Positions 1-5,065 of a stretch of DNA of 5,065 nucleotides are shown in pieces. The stretch spans positions 1 through 5,065 of IMG/VR virus record IMGVR_UViG_3300010219_000015. One strand, 5' to 3'. Positions within the stretch are counted from its first letter, which is position 1. Each line of letters starts with the position of its first letter. The notes under the pieces are model-generated. The model searched no databases. It was not told the DNA's origin and was given only the letters and a program-made list of their open reading frames with translations. Source of the stretch: a virus. Both the position numbers and the translations under genes were made by a program.

Positions 1-55
1 ACCCATTCCTGAGATGCGCGGGCCGCAGGCCGGTTGAGCTGCGCTGCGGCTCGCG
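1..55. repeat. Terminal direct repeat, copy 1 (identical to 5011..5065); overlap from linearising a circular contig
   Basis: acccattcctgagatgcgcgggccgcaggccggttgagctgcgctgcggctcgcg was read at both ends of the window, base for base. Confidence 0.95.
36..52. other. GC-rich stem-loop (7-bp stem with one G-T pair, 3-nt loop) inside a GC-rich non-coding island at about 14..56; a second small ggcc-gca-ggcc hairpin lies at 21..31
   Basis: gagctgc (36..42) pairs with gcggctc (46..52). ggcc (21..24) pairs with ggcc (28..31). The region is non-coding and much more GC-rich than its surroundings. Confidence 0.5.
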
Positions 56-56
56 T

Positions 57-93
57 GGGGGCATATGACTCTCCTCGTTGTCTATATGCCCCC
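57..93. other. Perfect 10-bp inverted repeat with a 17-nt loop, 4 nt downstream of the VP3 stop on the coding strand; candidate terminator, complementary-strand origin or other structural element
   Basis: gggggcatat (57..66) is the exact reverse complement of atatgccccc (84..93). The loop is gactctcctcgttgtct. No T/U tract follows on the coding strand, so it is not a canonical intrinsic terminator. Confidence 0.6.
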
Positions 94-97
94 TGAC

Positions 98-559
98 TCA
101 GGCTTCCTTCGTCGGCTCCTGGACGATCACCCGAATAGGATCGGGTGTGATTTCTTTTTTCAGGAGTCCGATTTGTACCGCCTCCTCTAGGTTCTTCTCG
201 TTGTTTACGAACTCCCAGAGTTTCTGTGGATCGTGGTTGAACCTTTCGCGAATGTCCGCCGGTAGATCATTGAATCTTTCTTGTGCTACTCGTGCGGAGT
301 CTAGCATTTCCCTCAGGCTTCGTGCCTGTGTGAAATCTCCATAGTATCGTGGGTCTGTTACTCTCGGAAGATTTGCGTTTTCGTCCTCTAGTCCTAGCCT
401 TCGGGCAATTACGTTGATATCTACATCGTCCCTGAATTGCTGTTGTGCTCCCGTTGGTGATACGTCTTTTTCGTCTGGGATATTGTGTACTAAGCTGGCT
501 TCGCCTGCCTTGTCATCTTCCTTTGTGTCGTATTGGTCTCTGAATTTCGGTCTTGCCAT
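98..559 (-). CDS. VP3: Internal scaffolding protein VP3 (153 aa from the internal ATG)
   Basis: The tracked 177-aa ORF opens with GTG at 629..631. The ATG at 557..559 is preceded by GGAGG (565..569) with a 5-nt spacer and sits 2 nt after the VP2 stop (GGAGGTAAATATG). The motif FNDLPADIRERFNHDPQKLWEFV is what I recognise from gokushovirus VP3 (Chlamy_scaf-type) scaffolding proteins. The gene follows VP2 as expected. The stop is TGA at 98..100. Confidence 0.85.
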   Translation of the reverse strand: MARPKFRDQYDTKEDDKAGEASLVHNIPDEKDVSPTGAQQQFRDDVDINVIARRLGLEDENANLPRVTDPRYYGDFTQARSLREMLDSARVAQERFNDLPADIRERFNHDPQKLWEFVNNEKNLEEAVQIGLLKKEITPDPIRVIVQEPTKEA

Positions 560-561
560 AT

Positions 562-1233
562 TTACCTCCGGAGTGTGTGTGCTGCTGTTTTCGCGTCGTT
601 TAGGAAGGGTCTTACGTATTTTCCGTACCACGTATTTGCGATACGTGAGTCGTTTCTTAGTCCGGGTAATTCATATCCGGACGCTGTTGCGTTGTTCTGT
701 GCGTTCTTTAGGTCGGCTTCCATTTGCTGTATCATCATTCGGTATGTTTCGCCTCCGAATGCGTTTTCGCGTGATGCTTTTTTCAGTTCCTCCATTCTCA
801 TTTGCTGTGTTAGTGCCCACAGGCTTGTTTGTCTGCCTGTTTCGTTTGCTACTGATGCTCTTTGTGCGTCTGCCAGCTTTGCTTGATTTGCGATTAGGTC
901 GCGTTGTGCTATTCCATTTTGTAGTTCGTTATACATTTGTACGGCGCTTGCTGCGGCTGCCTGTGCTCCTCCCATTGGGTTTTGATATGTTGCTGTGTTT
1001 CCGCTTGGTGCTCCTGCGCCGTTTGCTACGGCCATTGCAGGGTTGAATCCTGCGGCTTTTAGGTCTGCTACTCGTCTTTGTACTTCTGTGTTGCTCATTC
1101 GTTCTTGAAAGCTTCTGTTTCGTGCTGCCTCTCGGGCGTTTGCTTCGTTGGCGCTCATTCCTCCGAATACGTTGAATGCGCCTCCTACTAGGTTTCCTAT
1201 GACGCCCGGTAGTGCGTCGGTTAGGATTCCCAT
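562..1233 (-). CDS. VP2: DNA pilot / minor capsid protein VP2 (223 aa)
   Basis: The ATG at 1231..1233 overlaps the VP1 stop (TAATG). A glycine-rich N-terminus is followed by SFQERMSNTEVQRRVADLKAAGFNPAMA, the conserved block I recognise from gokushovirus VP2 pilot proteins. The rest of the protein is Ala/Gly/Gln-rich. The stop is TAA at 562..564. Confidence 0.85.
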   Translation of the reverse strand: MGILTDALPGVIGNLVGGAFNVFGGMSANEANAREAARNRSFQERMSNTEVQRRVADLKAAGFNPAMAVANGAGAPSGNTATYQNPMGGAQAAAASAVQMYNELQNGIAQRDLIANQAKLADAQRASVANETGRQTSLWALTQQMRMEELKKASRENAFGGETYRMMIQQMEADLKNAQNNATASGYELPGLRNDSRIANTWYGKYVRPFLNDAKTAAHTLRR

Positions 1234-2870
1234 TAGAATCTCCCCAGTTGTGCGGGTGTGTTAAACATTGGCATGGGTCGCGTCGCTTCTACTTCGAAGA
1301 ATGCGTCCAGTAGTACGTTCATGTTTGCCTGTGCTGAGCTAAGCGCGCGTGTGATTGGTGTGCTCTGTTGGATGAACGCGCTGTTGAGTGACGGTGCCGC
1401 GCTGAATTGTTCTGCGAGGTGCCACTCGTCGATGTTGTTTGCGGTTGTGCTCTTGAAGTATCCCGTAATTCGGGACTGTTCGTACTTGTATTCGGCCCAT
1501 CGTTCCTGATATCCGAATACGGCTGTGTCGTTTGCGTTTCCTCGGACGAAGATTTCGTCCATTCTGATTGCCTGTTCGCCCAGATTTGCGAATGCGGGAT
1601 AGTAGTGATCTAGGCGTGTGCTGCGCGTCCACATACGGTGCATTCCCTGCTGGTACGTTACTTCTCCGTATGCGTTGCAGAGTCCGATAATAAATCCGTG
1701 TTCAGTTGCGTGGTAGCTGAATGAGTGGTTGTCGTTTGCGAGTGCGGTTGCGCCGAGCGATCCCAGTGGATTGTTGATTGTGTTGTCGCTGGATTTTCTG
1801 TCAACTGCGGTTTGCGGGATTGCCTGTGTTTGAATTGCCGTGGTTCCGCCTCCGATGTATTCCGGGCGTTGGAGTCGTACATCTTCTGGTGATACTCCGA
1901 AGTGCATTTGAAGTTGTTCGACGTACCTCGTACCGCCGCGCATATCGCGCTCCAGTAGTACTTGCGTTGCAAGTGCGGTGCGTAGTGCATTGATTGTTCC
2001 GCCTGTTCCGCTGAGGTCGGCGTAGATGTTTGGTACGAGTCCGGCCGTTGTTCCGCTTGCTCTGATTACGAGTTGGTTTACGTTGTTCGCCATGAAATAT
2101 CCGGGATATCCGGTGCTGCTGGTCCCGTCTTTTTCTATGGCGTTTGTGAATCCGCCTGTTACTGGTGCGATTGCGGCGTTGACTGCAAGTCCCTTTACTG
2201 GTGCTGTTCCGGCGAGGAATGCTACGTCGCTTCCCTTCTGTGGTGTCGGTAGTGCGCTCGTGAAATAGTCGTGTCTTTTGTTTCGCCGGAGTAGTACATA
2301 GTTTGTCGATCCGTCGATATCTCCGGTTGCTTCTACGACGCTGTTTTGTAGGTTTTGGTCTCTAAACCATTCGTTAAAGATTTTGTTGTATCCCCTGAGT
2401 GGTAGCGCGTTGATGTTTACACTATCTGTGCCCGTTACGCCTGTTCCGGGTGTTGGGAGTCCGAAGTAATCGAATATGCTGCATACTCCGAATCCGGCTG
2501 CGGCGTTGTTGCTGTTGATTGTCGGGATTGTATAGCTGATGCTGTCCGATGGGTTTGCTCGTTCTCCCATCATTTTTTTCCAGTTTGACCATACGATTCT
2601 GTTCGGTACGAAAAAAAAGAACGTGTCTAGGTATGCTCGGTCCATTAGTGGGAAGATTAGGCTACTTCCCAGTCGGGCGAATACCTGTACGCGTCCTCTG
2701 ATTGAATCTGCCGGTAGTACTTCTTTGCAGTAGAAGGGAATTAGGTAGTTGAAGTCGAATGTTGTCTTTAGTGTGTGTTCGTTTCTGAATGATGCCCGTG
2801 GAATGTCGCTTCGGTTCGTCATTGCGAACCGTGACGTGTTGATGCGGCCTACGCGTTGGTTGAGATCCAT
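1233..2870 (-). CDS. VP1: Major capsid protein VP1 (545 aa, Microviridae F-protein family)
   Basis: ATG at 2868..2870 with GAGGA 4 nt upstream. The N-terminal block TTFDFNYLIPFYCKEVLPADS...FARLGSSLIFPLMDRAYLDTFFFFVPNRIVWSNW matches the hallmark N-terminal motifs of microvirus capsid proteins. The length is typical of gokushovirus VP1. Confidence 0.95.
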   Translation of the reverse strand: MDLNQRVGRINTSRFAMTNRSDIPRASFRNEHTLKTTFDFNYLIPFYCKEVLPADSIRGRVQVFARLGSSLIFPLMDRAYLDTFFFFVPNRIVWSNWKKMMGERANPSDSISYTIPTINSNNAAAGFGVCSIFDYFGLPTPGTGVTGTDSVNINALPLRGYNKIFNEWFRDQNLQNSVVEATGDIDGSTNYVLLRRNKRHDYFTSALPTPQKGSDVAFLAGTAPVKGLAVNAAIAPVTGGFTNAIEKDGTSSTGYPGYFMANNVNQLVIRASGTTAGLVPNIYADLSGTGGTINALRTALATQVLLERDMRGGTRYVEQLQMHFGVSPEDVRLQRPEYIGGGTTAIQTQAIPQTAVDRKSSDNTINNPLGSLGATALANDNHSFSYHATEHGFIIGLCNAYGEVTYQQGMHRMWTRSTRLDHYYPAFANLGEQAIRMDEIFVRGNANDTAVFGYQERWAEYKYEQSRITGYFKSTTANNIDEWHLAEQFSAAPSLNSAFIQQSTPITRALSSAQANMNVLLDAFFEVEATRPMPMFNTPAQLGRF

Positions 2871-2877
2871 ACTTTCC

Positions 2878-3162
2878 TCACTTGGTTTTGTTTTTGTTCC
2901 AAATGATCTGCGCGACTATCTTGCCGATTTCTAGTGCGAGTAATACTCCGCTGGCGATTTTGTTCCGCCACTTCTTATCGCTGGCTCTGCGTTTCGGCTT
3001 CTTCGCGTGTGCTTGGATCGCGGTTTCGATCGTATGGTGTTGGATCGTCTCGTCTGAATTCTCCTCGTGGGTTGTTGATGAAGGCCCATTCTTCTCCGGT
3101 TGCGATGATTTGGATATCGGCCGGGTAGAGTTTTCCGGTTCGGTCATCCTGTGCTCCGACAT
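2878..3162 (-). CDS. Candidate overprinted ORF (94 aa from ATG 3160..3162; 89 aa from ATG 3145..3147), hypothetical, with a basic cluster and hydrophobic helix at the C-terminus
   Basis: It overlaps the 3' part of the VP5-like gene in another frame and then fills the otherwise unassigned gap 2878..2974. GGAG (3154..3157) lies 6 nt before the second ATG. The TGA stop is part of the VP1 ribosome-binding site (TGAGGAAAGTATG). In the non-overlapped 32 codons only 1 ends in T, matching the coding signature of this genome. The C-terminus reads AKKPKRRASDKKWRNK-IASGVLLALEIGKIVAQIIW-NKNKTK. Caveat: the T-poor strand generates spurious same-strand ORFs, and the N-terminal half looks low-complexity. 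Confidence 0.35.
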   Translation of the reverse strand: MSEHRMTEPENSTRPISKSSQPEKNGPSSTTHEENSDETIQHHTIETAIQAHAKKPKRRASDKKWRNKIASGVLLALEIGKIVAQIIWNKNKTK

Positions 3163-3412
3163 ATAGGAGTTCGTAGTCTTTCGGGTGTTTGCCCGGTGTG
3201 GTCTGTTTGTTGCCTAGTACATCTTCGAATTCTCGGATTGCGGCTTGGTGGCTGCGGTAGTCTAGTGCTGGTCCTAGCAGCATGTTTGCGACTTTATCGC
3301 GGATTTGGTATAGTCCTCTGAGGCTTAAGTGTCTATATTTTGCGAAGTCGTTCGGCTCGCTCGTGGTGTTGTCGGTGGATGATTTCGGCGGCTGCGAGTC
3401 GTTCGGGTTCAT
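2975..3412 (-). CDS. VP5: VP5-like (ORF5-type) non-structural protein, 145 aa as drawn; start uncertain
   Basis: The core LYQIRDKVANMLLGPALDYRSHQAAIREFEDVLGNKQTTPGKHPKDYELLYVGAQDDRTGKLYPADIQIIATGEEW matches the pattern I remember for gokushovirus VP5 (A-x-R-x-F ... hP-x-D[FY]-x-L ... G-x-x-D-x-x-TG). It lies between VP4 and VP1 as in gokushoviruses. The only in-frame ATG upstream of the conserved core is at 3410..3412, which is 80 nt inside VP4 and has no obvious SD. Confidence 0.65.
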   Translation of the reverse strand: MNPNDSQPPKSSTDNTTSEPNDFAKYRHLSLRGLYQIRDKVANMLLGPALDYRSHQAAIREFEDVLGNKQTTPGKHPKDYELLYVGAQDDRTGKLYPADIQIIATGEEWAFINNPRGEFRRDDPTPYDRNRDPSTREEAETQSQR

Positions 3413-4247
3413 TTTTGTCTGTTGGCTTGAGTGACTGTTTGTACTTTCGGTGGTCGATGTTCTCGGCTAGCTGTGGTTCGGTCTTTTTGAGGTTGCGTAG
3501 GTATGTTCTGGGTATCTTGGTTTTCCTCCCGTTTAGGGTGACTAGGAATCCGTCTGTGAGGTCTGTTTTGTTCTCTTTTAGCCATCGTAGGCCGATGGCG
3601 GGTCGTCGGCTCATTCGTGCGAACGGTGGTGGTCTGTCGAACCATTCGCCGTTCTCGTCTATATATCCGTCGCCTTTTGTCCATCCCGCGCCCTTTAGCG
3701 CGTATTTTGCGATGTACGTTCCTGCTGCTGGTGTGAAGTTTCCTAGGTCTGTGATGCCTAGACCCCAGAGTTTGTGAAGTGTTTCGCTGGTATATCTTGG
3801 TAGTTCGTCGGTTCCTCCGATGCGTTGTTTGTCTTTAAAGTCGCAATTGAATAGGACGGCGTGATAGTGTGGTCGGTGTGTGTTGTGTGTTCCGTATTCT
3901 CCACAGGCGAAATAACTGAGGTTTTGCGTGTGGTCAGTGATGATGGTATCCACATCTCTAACTGTTGCGTTTCGGATTCTTTTGAGGAAGTTTCTGAGGT
4001 GTTCTGGTACAAGGTGTCCTCCTCGTGGTACGTTAGCGTCGTCGTATGTTAGCGTTACGAATATGTTGTACGGTGTTCTTCGCGCTTCGTGGGAACATCT
4101 GTGTCCCCATTCTGTGGCGCGGTCGGTACGGCATCCAATACATTTCCCGCATGGGAGTTGTAGGTTGGTTAGTCCTAGTTGTGGTTTGATGATGAGCTGT
4201 TTTCCGGGTGCCTCTTGGTATGCTGGTATTGGGTGGTAGCATGCCAC
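3333..4247 (-). CDS. VP4: Replication initiation protein VP4 (304 aa, HUH rolling-circle endonuclease), GTG start
   Basis: The start codon is GTG (plus strand cac at 4245..4247), bounded by an in-frame TAA two codons upstream (4251..4253), with GGAGG 9 nt upstream. Motifs verified at nucleotide level: CGKCIGC (4131..4151), FVTLTY (4044..4061), the HUH motif RPHYHAVLF (HYH at 3861..3869), and the double catalytic tyrosine YIAKY (3702..3716). The last resembles the Y-x-x-K-Y of phiX174 protein A. Confidence 0.95.
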   Translation of the reverse strand: MACYHPIPAYQEAPGKQLIIKPQLGLTNLQLPCGKCIGCRTDRATEWGHRCSHEARRTPYNIFVTLTYDDANVPRGGHLVPEHLRNFLKRIRNATVRDVDTIITDHTQNLSYFACGEYGTHNTHRPHYHAVLFNCDFKDKQRIGGTDELPRYTSETLHKLWGLGITDLGNFTPAAGTYIAKYALKGAGWTKGDGYIDENGEWFDRPPPFARMSRRPAIGLRWLKENKTDLTDGFLVTLNGRKTKIPRTYLRNLKKTEPQLAENIDHRKYKQSLKPTDKNEPERLAAAEIIHRQHHERAERLRKI

Positions 4248-4250
4248 TTG

Positions 4251-4361
4251 TTATAGCCTCCATCCTCCGCGCATTACTCGGACGTTGAATGCGTGGGTTT
4301 TCTGGCTGTTGCGGTTGAAGCTGTTTGCGCTCTTGCGGCGGTTGACGTTGCGGCGCTGCAT
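4251..4361 (-). CDS. Small arginine-rich DNA-binding/packaging peptide, J-protein / gokushovirus ORF8-like (36 aa)
   Basis: Hand translation gives ATG (4359..4361) ... TAA (4251..4253) = MQRRNVNRRKSANSFNRNSQKTHAFNVRVMRGGWRL. It has 10 Arg/Lys, no acidic residue, and a C-terminal RGGxRL-type ending that I recall from small basic gokushovirus peptides. No codon ends in T (0/36). A G-rich stretch (GGGGGA) lies 7 nt upstream. Its last codons carry the VP4 Shine-Dalgarno, and its stop is 3 nt before the VP4 GTG (TAACAAGTG). It is missing from the supplied track only because of its length. Confidence 0.7.
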   Translation of the reverse strand: MQRRNVNRRKSANSFNRNSQKTHAFNVRVMRGGWRL

Positions 4362-4404
4362 TTGTTGTTCCCCCGGGTTTTTTGAAAATTTTTTGGACGG
4401 ATGT

Positions 4405-4438
4405 GGAAAAGTCCCCGTTTTAGGACGGGTTCTTTTCC
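4405..4438. other. Intergenic stem-loop (7 bp + 2x2 internal loop + 5 bp, 6-nt loop) between ORF64 and the J-like gene
   Basis: ggaaaag (4405..4411) pairs with cttttcc (4432..4438), and cccgt (4414..4418) pairs with acggg (4425..4429). The loop is tttagg. It lies 15 nt after the ORF64 stop on the coding strand. No U tract follows directly. Confidence 0.55.
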
Positions 4439-4453
4439 GGTTGATGGTTTGTG

Positions 4454-4648
4454 TTAGTGCTGGAGTGCGGTGTTGAGGTATTCGATTGCGTCTGTTACGA
4501 AGTCGAATGCGAGTTTGAGATACTTCGCTTCCTCGGTGTCCGGCTTCGCTTCTGCGTGTAGCTTCGTGATTTCTATTCGTGCCTGTTGCATCTTGTAGCG
4601 CGCCTCTTTGGTGCGCGTGTCTGTGTCGATCTGCGCGGTCTGTCGCAT
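4454..4648 (-). CDS. Hypothetical small helical protein (ORF64, 64 aa), orphan
   Basis: The ATG at 4646..4648 is 2 nt after the ORF68 stop, with GAGGA inside the last ORF68 codons (GAGGAAGTAAACATG). Only 1 of 64 codons ends in T. The sequence is charged and amphipathic (…ARIEITKLHAEAKPDTEEAKYLKLAFDFVTDAIEYLNTALQH). I recognise no family. Confidence 0.6.
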   Translation of the reverse strand: MRQTAQIDTDTRTKEARYKMQQARIEITKLHAEAKPDTEEAKYLKLAFDFVTDAIEYLNTALQH

Positions 4649-4650
4649 GT

Positions 4651-4857
4651 TTACTTCCTCGTGTTGTTGGCCTTGGCGGCGTCGATCTGTTCGCGCTTCT
4701 GTGCGCTCTCGTCGTCGGTCTGTTTCTTCAGGGCCTTTACGGCTTCGATCATTTCTTCCGTGCTGGCGACTGCTCCGCGTTGCCGCGCGAGCTTGGTCTC
4801 GAGGTCGCGAATGGTCCGGTCAAAGTGCATGCTCGTGACGTTTGTCGTGGCGCTCAT
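4651..4857 (-). CDS. Hypothetical small coiled-coil-like protein (ORF68, 68 aa), orphan
   Basis: The tracked 121-aa ORF is trimmed to the internal ATG at 4855..4857, which has a strong AGGAGG (4864..4869) 6 nt upstream. The discarded N-terminal 53 codons are low-complexity T/H/R/N-rich. Only 2 of 68 codons end in T. Heptad-like hydrophobic spacing is seen in FDRTIRDLETKLARQRGAVASTEEMIEAVKALKKQ. I recognise no family. Confidence 0.65.
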   Translation of the reverse strand: MSATTNVTSMHFDRTIRDLETKLARQRGAVASTEEMIEAVKALKKQTDDESAQKREQIDAAKANNTRK

Positions 4858-4876
4858 GGTATTCCTCCTGTGGTTG

Positions 4877-4892
4877 CGAGCCCTTTTGCTCG
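4877..4892 (-). other. Short stem-loop (5 bp plus 2 possible G-T pairs, 6-nt loop) in the putative 5' leader of ORF68
   Basis: cgagc (4877..4881) pairs with gctcg (4888..4892). It lies between the candidate promoter and the ORF68 SD. Confidence 0.3.
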
Positions 4893-4900
4893 TGTCTGTA

Positions 4901-4921
4901 TCTATAGCAGGAGTCGTGCCA
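4901..4921 (-). promoter_or_regulatory. Candidate promoter for the ORF68-led transcript: a sigma-54-like -24/-12 element overlapping an extended -10-like TGCTATAGA
   Basis: The minus strand 4921..4906 reads TGGCACGACTCCTGCT, against the sigma-54 consensus TGGCACG-N4-TTGCW. The GG and GC are at the exact consensus spacing, with one mismatch (C for the first T of TTGC). The same bases give TG-n-TATAGA (4909..4901), an extended -10-like sigma-70 element with a poor -35. It lies about 45-65 nt upstream of the ORF68 ATG, in the only large non-coding region. Confidence 0.3.
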
Positions 4922-5010
4922 TGAGTTGCGTTTGTGTGTTGCGGTCTAACGCTGGCACGTTTCTTGGGTTTGTGGCTTGTGTGCCACATTGTGTTGCGTG
5001 TGTGTGCTAC

Positions 5011-5065
5011 ACCCATTCCTGAGATGCGCGGGCCGCAGGCCGGTTGAGCTGCGCTGCGGCTCGCG
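5011..5065. repeat. Terminal direct repeat, copy 2 (identical to 1..55)
   Basis: Same 55-mer as 1..55. Confidence 0.95.

Follow-up and report, generated by a model that had tools for sequence, protein, structure and literature searches.

What two small open reading frames (ORFs) are doing in an otherwise conventional microvirus genome is the question raised by ORF68 and ORF64, which lie side by side in a 5,065-nucleotide (nt) stretch of viral DNA (positions 1 to 5,065 of IMG/VR record IMGVR_UViG_3300010219_000015; hereafter the window). With genomes of 4-6 kb, microviruses are one of the most abundant groups of phages, and they are generally taken to carry an invariable set of six genes that face in one direction. 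The window is a gokushovirus genome, circular at 5,010 nt with ends that overlap by 55 nt, and every gene is on its minus strand. An initial annotation, made from the sequence alone, described ORF68 and ORF64 as a coupled pair of orphan helical genes forming a single accessory cassette with non-core codon composition. The evidence points, with a probability of about 0.72, to a different arrangement: two real but evolutionarily separate genes, one belonging to a conserved family and the other occupying a variable slot behind it, with a maintained codon constraint and a mechanism that would rest on a coiled coil. The elements concerned are as follows.

4651-4857, minus strand: ORF68, 68 residues; family member whose core (residues 12-44) precedes a variable, K-terminated tail
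4454-4648, minus strand: ORF64, 64 residues; lineage-specific singleton with a predicted two-helix hairpin, in the variable slot behind the family gene
4864-4869, minus strand: Shine–Dalgarno (SD) sequence AGGAGG, 6 nt 5′ of the ORF68 ATG, read from the sequence
4646-4660, minus strand: coupling junction GAGGAAG-TAA-AC-ATG of ORF68 and ORF64, read from the sequence

ORF68 is the first gene after a 250-nt non-coding region and is preceded by AGGAGG-AATACC-ATG. An SD-like purine run in its last codons is followed by the stop codon, 2 nt and the start of ORF64.

The ORF68 protein family

Word-indexed searches matched ORF68 and ORF64 each only to itself (ORF64 among 5.8 billion clusters). For ORF68 this self-only result was misleading, and an exhaustive profile search was needed. 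A permissive tblastn search of loci fetched through VP1 and VP4 (related loci are given L numbers) returned one match to ORF68, a 52-residue ORF with 39% identity in L014, encoded opposite to the L014 core genes. The two-sequence profile of ORF68 and the L014 protein served as the family seed for an exhaustive search of 1.84 billion representatives. This search yielded 54 proteins with E ≤ 1e-3, of which five reached E ≤ 1e-10, with independent members scoring from 6e-14 to 1e-3; the family comprises at least 54 clusters at 50% identity.

Family members are 35-90 residues long, except for one 1,307-residue repeat protein and a few proteins with long N-terminal extensions. Their consensus, IRxLExKLARQxxAVxxTE, contains the core K-L-x-R-Q-x2-A-V-x2-T-E. 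In a 46-sequence alignment Arg25 and Gln26 are invariant, and Lys22 and Thr33 are conserved in 98% and 96% of sequences; ORF68 itself has Lys22, Arg25, Gln26, Ala29, Val30 and Thr33. A heptad a/d repeat runs unbroken from residue 12 to approximately residue 44, placing Gln26 and Thr33 at 'd' positions and Lys22, Arg25 and Ala29 on the same face. The tail that follows the family core is variable and rich in K, A, E, Q and P, with K or R within the last three residues in all 46 aligned members (TRK in ORF68). AlphaFold2 (AF2) modelled ORF68 as a single helix spanning residues 3-67, with a predicted local distance difference test (pLDDT) score of 91. Both ORF68 and ORF64 are hydrophilic throughout, without a hydrophobic stretch of at least about 18 residues, and their predicted helices are amphipathic and charged. 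A lysis protein of the phiX174 E type was rejected for both, as neither has an N-terminal transmembrane helix.

Pairwise ratios of non-synonymous to synonymous divergence (dN/dS) within the family range from 0.08 to 0.54, and the pair L014/L027, in which the gene is reversed, gave 0.075 (seven synonymous and two non-synonymous differences). Over the 33-residue core, the window shares 73-82% identity with L033, L029, L036 and L035, compared with 48-53% for VP4 and 55-63% for VP1. Synonymous divergence (dS) among the T-poor genomes, which include the window, is approximately 1 or saturated.

The distribution of the family is narrow. Searches of GenBank phages by tblastn gave no match for ORF68 or ORF64, and whole-genome blastn against the same phages showed just distant similarity in VP1 and VP2. 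A family-motif scan of IMG/VR found only L031. The motif was also searched in 185,579 genomes for host or prophage copies, where the sole match, L044, was dismissed as a chance match in an unrelated ORF. Neither ORF68 nor ORF64 matched Phage_F, Chlamy_scaf, Phage_ORF5, REP_ORF2-G2P, the pilot-protein PHROGs or phrog_10695, and core-protein identity is excluded for the pair because each core family is already assigned to another gene of the window. On sequence grounds, ORF68 is a member of a previously uncatalogued, well-conserved and gokushovirus-restricted family of predicted coiled-coil proteins.

Strand, neighbours and the variable slot

The family gene lies in gokushovirus genomes or genome fragments in all 13 lineages examined. 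It is co-oriented with the core genes in nine of them (the window, L028, L033, L035, L036, L039, L031, L040 and L045) and lies on the opposite strand in four (L014/L027, L041/L042, L043 and L046), L041 and L042 being independent assemblies. The usual site is the gap between VP3 and VP8/VP4; in L045 it is found between VP4 and VP5 instead. Reversed copies are solitary, diverge from VP8-VP4 and converge on VP3. Their positions are:

L014: 4340-4498, minus strand
L027: 783-941
L041: 2596-2736
L042: 2691-2831
L043: 3859-4020
L046: 491-655

A 95-residue 'gene' beside the reversed L043 copy runs antisense to the VP8-like gene and was probably called in error. Of the 25 loci retrieved by way of VP1 or VP4, just one has the family gene, which is therefore regarded as accessory.

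Sigma-70-like promoters lie 40-130 nt upstream of the family gene, on its own strand, in L041, L040, L028 and L043. That of L041 (TTGACA-17-TATATT) agrees with the consensus at 11 of 12 positions and that of L040 at 10 of 12, and a promoter 5′ of the family gene was recognised by eye in L045. AGGAG(G) occupies the equivalent site before the family gene in relatives, and a hairpin lies past its stop codon in L041 and L043. The family gene is best explained as a self-sufficient unit, usually with its own promoter and a strong SD, that can be placed on either strand.

What stands behind a co-oriented family gene differs among lineages:

Window: ORF64
L028: an 81-residue ORF
L033 and L032: ORFs of 53 and 55 residues, respectively
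L031: a 52-residue ORF
L045: VP5
L035, L036, L039 and L040: the VP8-like gene, abutting or overlapping

A stop codon followed within one or two nucleotides by ATG (…AAGTAA-N1-2-ATG) closes the family gene in the window, L028, L033, L032, L031 and L045. The VP8-like gene is found by tblastn in relatives, and is adjacent to the family gene in L035, L036 and L039. Comparison of the small slot ORFs by phmmer showed them to be mutually unrelated, except for L033 with L032; that slot gene has a dN/dS of 0.28 and is therefore considered real. Because the downstream cistron changes by lineage, the pair in the window is read as a conserved gene and a lineage-specific occupant of a hot spot, not as a cassette.

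ORF64 was modelled by AF2 as a hairpin of two helices, residues 9-33 and 39-63 (pLDDT 88). Fold searches of the PDB and BFVD with this model returned generic helical hairpins only, none at E ≤ 0.001 (best 1.1 and 0.22). The possibility that ORF64 is a diverged duplicate of the family gene was rejected (hmmsearch -0.8 bits, shuffle P = 0.83, hhalign 1%, no alignment by BLASTP). Motif overlaps in hhalign were suggestive of slot genes being diverged family copies, and shuffle tests rejected this origin as well (P = 0.09 for L028). ORF64 could instead be a young or de novo gene.

The 9,963-nt contig L032 is a concatemer in which two genome copies, slightly different from each other, are joined head to tail, and its two family genes differ in the tail (…EHGAKNGNPKK versus …AAHNTTTTKK). 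It probably arose from the co-assembly of two strains.

Coding status and codon composition

Reading frames were scored as codon-usage log-odds, trained on the five core genes and expressed in bits/codon. ORF64 scored +0.28 in its own frame (-0.74 and -0.18 in the other two) and ORF68 +0.06 (-0.68 and -0.41). For reference, 64-codon in-frame windows of real genes had a mean of 0.49 and a minimum of -0.01, and the off-frame maximum was -0.20. Both ORFs lie above every off-frame window and inside the in-frame range, and are therefore read as coding in these frames; the score of ORF68 is low only because its codon usage departs from that of the core. The T fraction of ORF64 at codon positions 1, 2 and 3 (0.09, 0.22 and 0.02) follows the periodicity of the core genes. 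Both ORF68 and ORF64 look like real genes.

Third codon positions number A11 C32 G23 T2 in ORF68 and A19 C25 G19 T1 in ORF64. The fraction of G at third positions (G3) over whole genes is 0.34 in ORF68 and 0.30 in ORF64, versus 0.14 in VP1, 0.13 in VP2, 0.11 in VP4, 0.14 in VP5 and 0.22 in VP3 (pair versus core, chi-square P = 2e-8). The excess is not a product of protein composition: synonymous codons were resampled from core usage given the amino acids of each gene, which predicted an A3 (third-position A) count of 32.9 and a G3 count of 11.1 for ORF68, against 11 and 22 observed (P < 1/3000). For ORF64, the expected counts were 29.3 and 10.0, and those observed were 19 and 18 (P = 0.003). 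Lysine is encoded by AAG 10 times and AAA 3 times in the pair, versus 16 and 40 times in the core, and leucine by CTC 6 times and CTA once, versus 30 and 49 times.

The same signature recurs in five other T-poor genomes. In L028, L033, L035 and L040 the family gene is rich in GC at third positions (GC3) and poor in A3 relative to its own genome (conditioned GC3 P ≤ 0.001), and the slot genes of L028 and L033, together with VP8 of L028, are nearly core-like. In L045, where the gene has a different position, its GC3 is 0.78 and that of the flanking 60 codons is 0.23 and 0.54, such that the signature moves with the gene. The family gene of L031, a G/T-rich genome, shows no deviation, and the reversed copy in L041 mirrors the strand skew. 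Because dS is saturated and the protein tracks the core genes, the signature is taken to be maintained and gene-specific rather than the mark of a recent import. Its cause is possibly selection on expression of the promoter-proximal cistron, or on properties of the mRNA. RNA structure was rejected as the source of the GC3 enrichment, since the folding of the mRNA is unexceptional (z = -1.2). A gradient with position relative to the origin-like hairpin and non-coding region is plausible from the window alone, and was rejected as the main cause given the behaviour of the gene in L045.

Within the window the compositional shift extends beyond the pair, to ORF36/VP8 (GC3 0.78) and the last 33 codons of VP3 (G3 0.39). 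Over the last 35-40 or so codons of VP3 (window 101-199), G3 is 0.28-0.39 in the window, L028, L035 and L040, and 0.23 in L033. This rise at the 3′ end of VP3 is a local effect beside the non-coding region, separate from the signature of the family gene.

Much of what the initial annotation had read directly from the letters is borne out. AGGAGG-N6-ATG, the TAA-AC-ATG junction and the SD inside ORF68 are exact in the sequence, and the junction fits the translational coupling proposed from it. The avoidance of T-ending codons and the hand-counted third positions agree exactly with the whole-gene counts, and the G3 excess over the core survives both the whole-gene and the amino-acid-conditioned test. 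Likewise, the lysine and leucine counts agree with the synonymous preferences that had been named. The suggestion that both ORFs are real genes with helical products is in keeping with the in-frame codon scores and with the AF2 helix and hairpin. The SD of ORF68 had been called the strongest in the genome. Strong it is, with a predicted duplex with the anti-SD of -10.3 kcal/mol, but it is tied with that of VP3 (GGAGGT, -10.8 kcal/mol) rather than uniquely strongest.

The T content of the coding strand is itself unusual. It is 13-14% (A+C 0.62-0.66) in the window, L001-L003, L028-L040 and L045, and 20-37%, classical for microviruses, in the other gokushovirus loci. Negative-sense packaging is not supported as the origin of the T-poor strand, since an origin-like hairpin loop motif lies, by eye, on the coding strand in one T-poor genome and in one G/T-rich genome alike.

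The remaining features of the window are:

98-559, minus strand: VP3 (Chlamy_scaf)
562-1233, minus strand: VP2 (pilot-protein PHROGs)
1233-2870, minus strand: VP1 (Phage_F)
2975-3412, minus strand: VP5 (Phage_ORF5, PF20577)
3333-4247, minus strand: VP4/Rep (PF23343; REP_ORF2-G2P)
4251-4361, minus strand: ORF36, a VP8/ORF8-like basic DNA-binding peptide and the next downstream gene (phrog_10695, E 9e-11)
4405-4438, inverted repeat: hairpin (14-nt arms, 6-nt loop) separating ORF64 from the VP8-like gene
4858-5010, continuing as 1-97 over the circle junction to the VP3 stop, minus strand: non-coding region 5′ of ORF68
57-93, inverted repeat: perfect 10-bp hairpin just past the VP3 stop

The hairpin at 57-93 carries the loop motif AGACAACGAGG on the coding strand, which is kept in L028, L033 and L040 as judged by eye; this hairpin may represent an origin or nick site, or else a terminator. 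The window, L028 and L033 have in common a further GC-rich hairpin (17-28/44-55; window 17-55) and the motif GCCTGCGGCCCGCGCAT. The hairpin at 4405-4438 stands with an adjacent motif, GTCCTAAAAxGGGGACTTTTCCACAT…AAAAAATTTT, 5′ of the VP8-like gene (4362-4453), and both are kept in L028 and L033 when aligned by eye. It gives a terminator-like match on the plus strand and may terminate the small-gene unit, regulate VP8-VP4, or do both.

Further ORFs were noted in the window and its relatives. ORF94 (window 2878-3162, minus strand, 94 residues) shares the 3′ end of VP5, read in a different frame, and reaches into the VP5-VP1 gap. Its C-terminus (IASGVLLALEIGKIVAQIIW) resembles a transmembrane segment, such that it could be an overprinted lysis-type gene; its codon score is -0.31 bits/codon, and tblastn found no relative in related loci. 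In L028, a 58-residue ORF with a zinc-ribbon-like CxxC…CxxxxC pattern (3548-3724, plus strand) is found within the long non-coding stretch that separates VP3 from the family gene, and may be a further accessory gene. L040 has a weak peptidase M15/VanY-like match (3697-4086) between VP4 and VP5, a putative lysis enzyme that the window does not have.

Mechanism, competing explanations and known systems

It is proposed that the ORF68 protein oligomerises as a coiled coil and that its invariant K-x2-RQ-x2-A-x3-T face, part polar and part hydrophobic, would bind a slowly evolving target. This target may belong to the host, as part of its replication or transcription machinery, or to the phage, as its Rep or its DNA. 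A conserved target is probable, and a fast-evolving defence system less likely, because gokushoviruses as a group can do without the gene, yet in the genomes that have it the gene diverges more slowly than Rep. As the first cistron and with a strong SD, ORF68 would act early and abundantly. More generally, a co-oriented family gene would be the promoter-proximal cistron, to which the next is joined by stop-N1-2-ATG. ORF64 would then be a fast-turnover accessory factor, translated by termination-reinitiation after ORF68, and need not bind it.

Several observations weigh against this account of a conserved family gene and a variable slot. L040 has the closest VP4 (58% identity) yet a distant family core (45%), and sequence comparison thus indicates that some exchange of the family gene between lineages does occur. 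Sequence and profile searches of PHROGs v4, Pfam, NCBIfam and the PDB gave ORF68 no counterpart and indicate no function, and oligomerisation and target binding are suggested by the heptad pattern and a monomer model only. The shift in composition extends in the window to the end of VP3, ORF36 and ORF64, so the gene-specific effect may be compounded by a local regional one. The sigma-70 consensus scan found no promoter 5′ of ORF68 in the window, nor one in L014. ORF64 has no relative in the collections, the fetched loci or GenBank phages, and hence no comparative support. In addition, the coding strand is 13.5% T, so stop codons are few; it holds 23 stop-free stretches of at least 50 codons, making ORF length alone weak evidence.

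These last points are the substance of the alternative that ORF64 is no gene, and that the DNA separating the family gene from the VP8-like gene is non-coding, with a frame that stays open by chance because stops are scarce on a T-poor strand. Several close relatives have nothing at its position, and AF2 modelling from one sequence says little for a gene when that sequence is prone to form helices. Nevertheless, the in-frame codon score falls within the range of real genes and above all off-frame windows, the T periodicity agrees with that of the core genes, and the ATG has a correctly spaced SD right past the upstream stop. Moreover, the stop-ATG architecture recurs in lineages whose slot gene is under purifying selection. 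A chance frame is therefore unlikely, and ORF64 is quite probably a real singleton gene. If it is real, could it and ORF68 form a co-acquired module, with products acting together as a complex or as effector and partner, and with foreign codon usage kept? The tight junction and internal SD would suit such a module, as would two helical proteins with codon usage deviating from the core in the same direction and the coupled small ORFs behind the family gene in L028, L033 and L031. These downstream ORFs, however, are unrelated to each other and to ORF64; a slot ORF is absent from L035, L036, L039 and L040, and VP5 takes its place in L045. Reversed copies are solitary, the slot genes of L028 and L033 are core-like in codon usage, and the ORF68 core co-diverges with the core genes at saturated dS. 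A check of ORF68 as a foreign cassette gave mixed observations: atypical composition and the incongruent L040 on one side, and on the other core identities that track VP4 within the clade, saturated dS and no donor. A joint module is very improbable.

A different function has been considered for the family itself, that of a small Cop-like copy-control or transcriptional regulator of replication or of the late operon, acting on the adjacent non-coding region. Small Cop repressors such as CopG, a ribbon-helix-helix (RHH) dimer, are encoded just upstream of rep in rolling-circle plasmids. ORF68 resembles Cop-type repressors in size (45-70 residues), in lying just upstream of or divergent from a gene for an HUH Rep, and in its position beside the main non-coding region. 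The 5′ end of the family gene always adjoins a promoter-bearing non-coding region, and the gene heads a VP8-VP4 or VP5-VP1 operon or diverges from VP8-VP4. It is also well conserved where present, and the conserved, exposed Lys22, Arg25, Arg17 and Arg27 and the basic C-terminus could contact nucleic acid. Yet the modelled protein is one continuous heptad-repeat helix without an RHH or helix-turn-helix fold, with its basic residues inside that helix and not in a separate basic region. No DNA-binding family in PHROGs, Pfam or NCBIfam matched it, no homology to CopG was found, and most gokushoviruses do not have the gene. Nor did repeated sites resembling operators come to light, although no search aimed at them was made. 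An RHH Cop/Arc repressor in particular was rejected for both ORFs, given the continuous helix of ORF68, the plain hairpin of ORF64 and the absence of any Pfam or NCBIfam RHH match. A Cop-like role is accordingly judged decidedly unlikely. Equally doubtful is a bolder reading, in which the ORF68 family would be the first conserved protein family found on either microvirus strand and would make some gokushoviruses truly ambisense. In reversed genomes the gene, with a near-consensus promoter of its own and divergent from the VP8-Rep operon, would then be an autonomous early or regulatory switch for replication, late expression or a carrier state, ORF68 of the window the same switch heading an operon, and ORF64 a newly arisen add-on.

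With the conserved family gene and variable slot as the preferred reading, the broader claims of the initial annotation fare unevenly. 'Orphan' suits ORF64, for which no relative was found, but not ORF68, whose family is carried by its closest relatives. A single two-gene cassette is contradicted by family genes that occur alone or with unrelated or core downstream cistrons. As for a pair 'separately acquired or differently constrained', the first half is disfavoured for ORF68, where the protein core follows the core genes, dS is saturated and the signature moves with the gene in L045; the second half fits. The consensus scan did not recover the candidate promoter placed before ORF68 in the window; a promoter of this type is present in four relatives. 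The lack of homology of either ORF to VP1-VP5 or VP8 stands. For ORF68, purifying selection in relatives, a GC3 that departs from the core genes and the absence of any core-protein match all agree with the claim of a distinct gene.

A family under selection, missing from Pfam, PHROGs and NCBIfam and better conserved than Rep in its clade, probably does something important. Its reversed copies contradict the working assumption of a single gene orientation in microviruses, and the position behind it is a hot spot with a turnover of unrelated small genes. A synonymous-site bias kept over saturated divergence is a signal worth study. The value of the finding is a defined target for experiments rather than a mechanism.

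Among known proteins, the generic short coiled-coil families SlyX (PF04102), THOC7 (PF05615) and the Rz-like spanin phrog_214 are likewise charged, helical and heptad-like, and of similar length. The matches fall far under the curated cut-offs (13-17 bits versus 29-30; E 0.008-0.12), and homology was rejected, the likeness being compositional. VP8/ORF8, a J-like DNA-binding peptide, and VP5 (Phage_ORF5) are likewise small, are encoded beside the family gene and are coupled directly to its stop in several genomes. They have no sequence similarity to the pair, and the window has its own ORF36 and its own VP5.

The closest parallel lies with the accessory proteins of microviruses, which are mostly small (approximately 65 residues) and of unknown function (Kirchberger, Martinez and Ochman 2022, PMC9239249). 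The ORF68 family is like these proteins in size class, in its patchy distribution among gokushoviruses and in standing outside the VP1-VP5/VP8 set. It differs in its sharp definition, by an RQ that never varies and a K and a T that hardly do, in being under purifying selection and in being better conserved than Rep in its clade. In four lineages it also lies on the strand opposite VP1. The curation in PMC9239249 deleted reverse-oriented genes by rule, and curated microvirus sets of this kind will have missed the reversed family copies. The ORF68 family belongs to a known kind of element but is itself new and definable, and the copy in the window is a typical co-oriented member.

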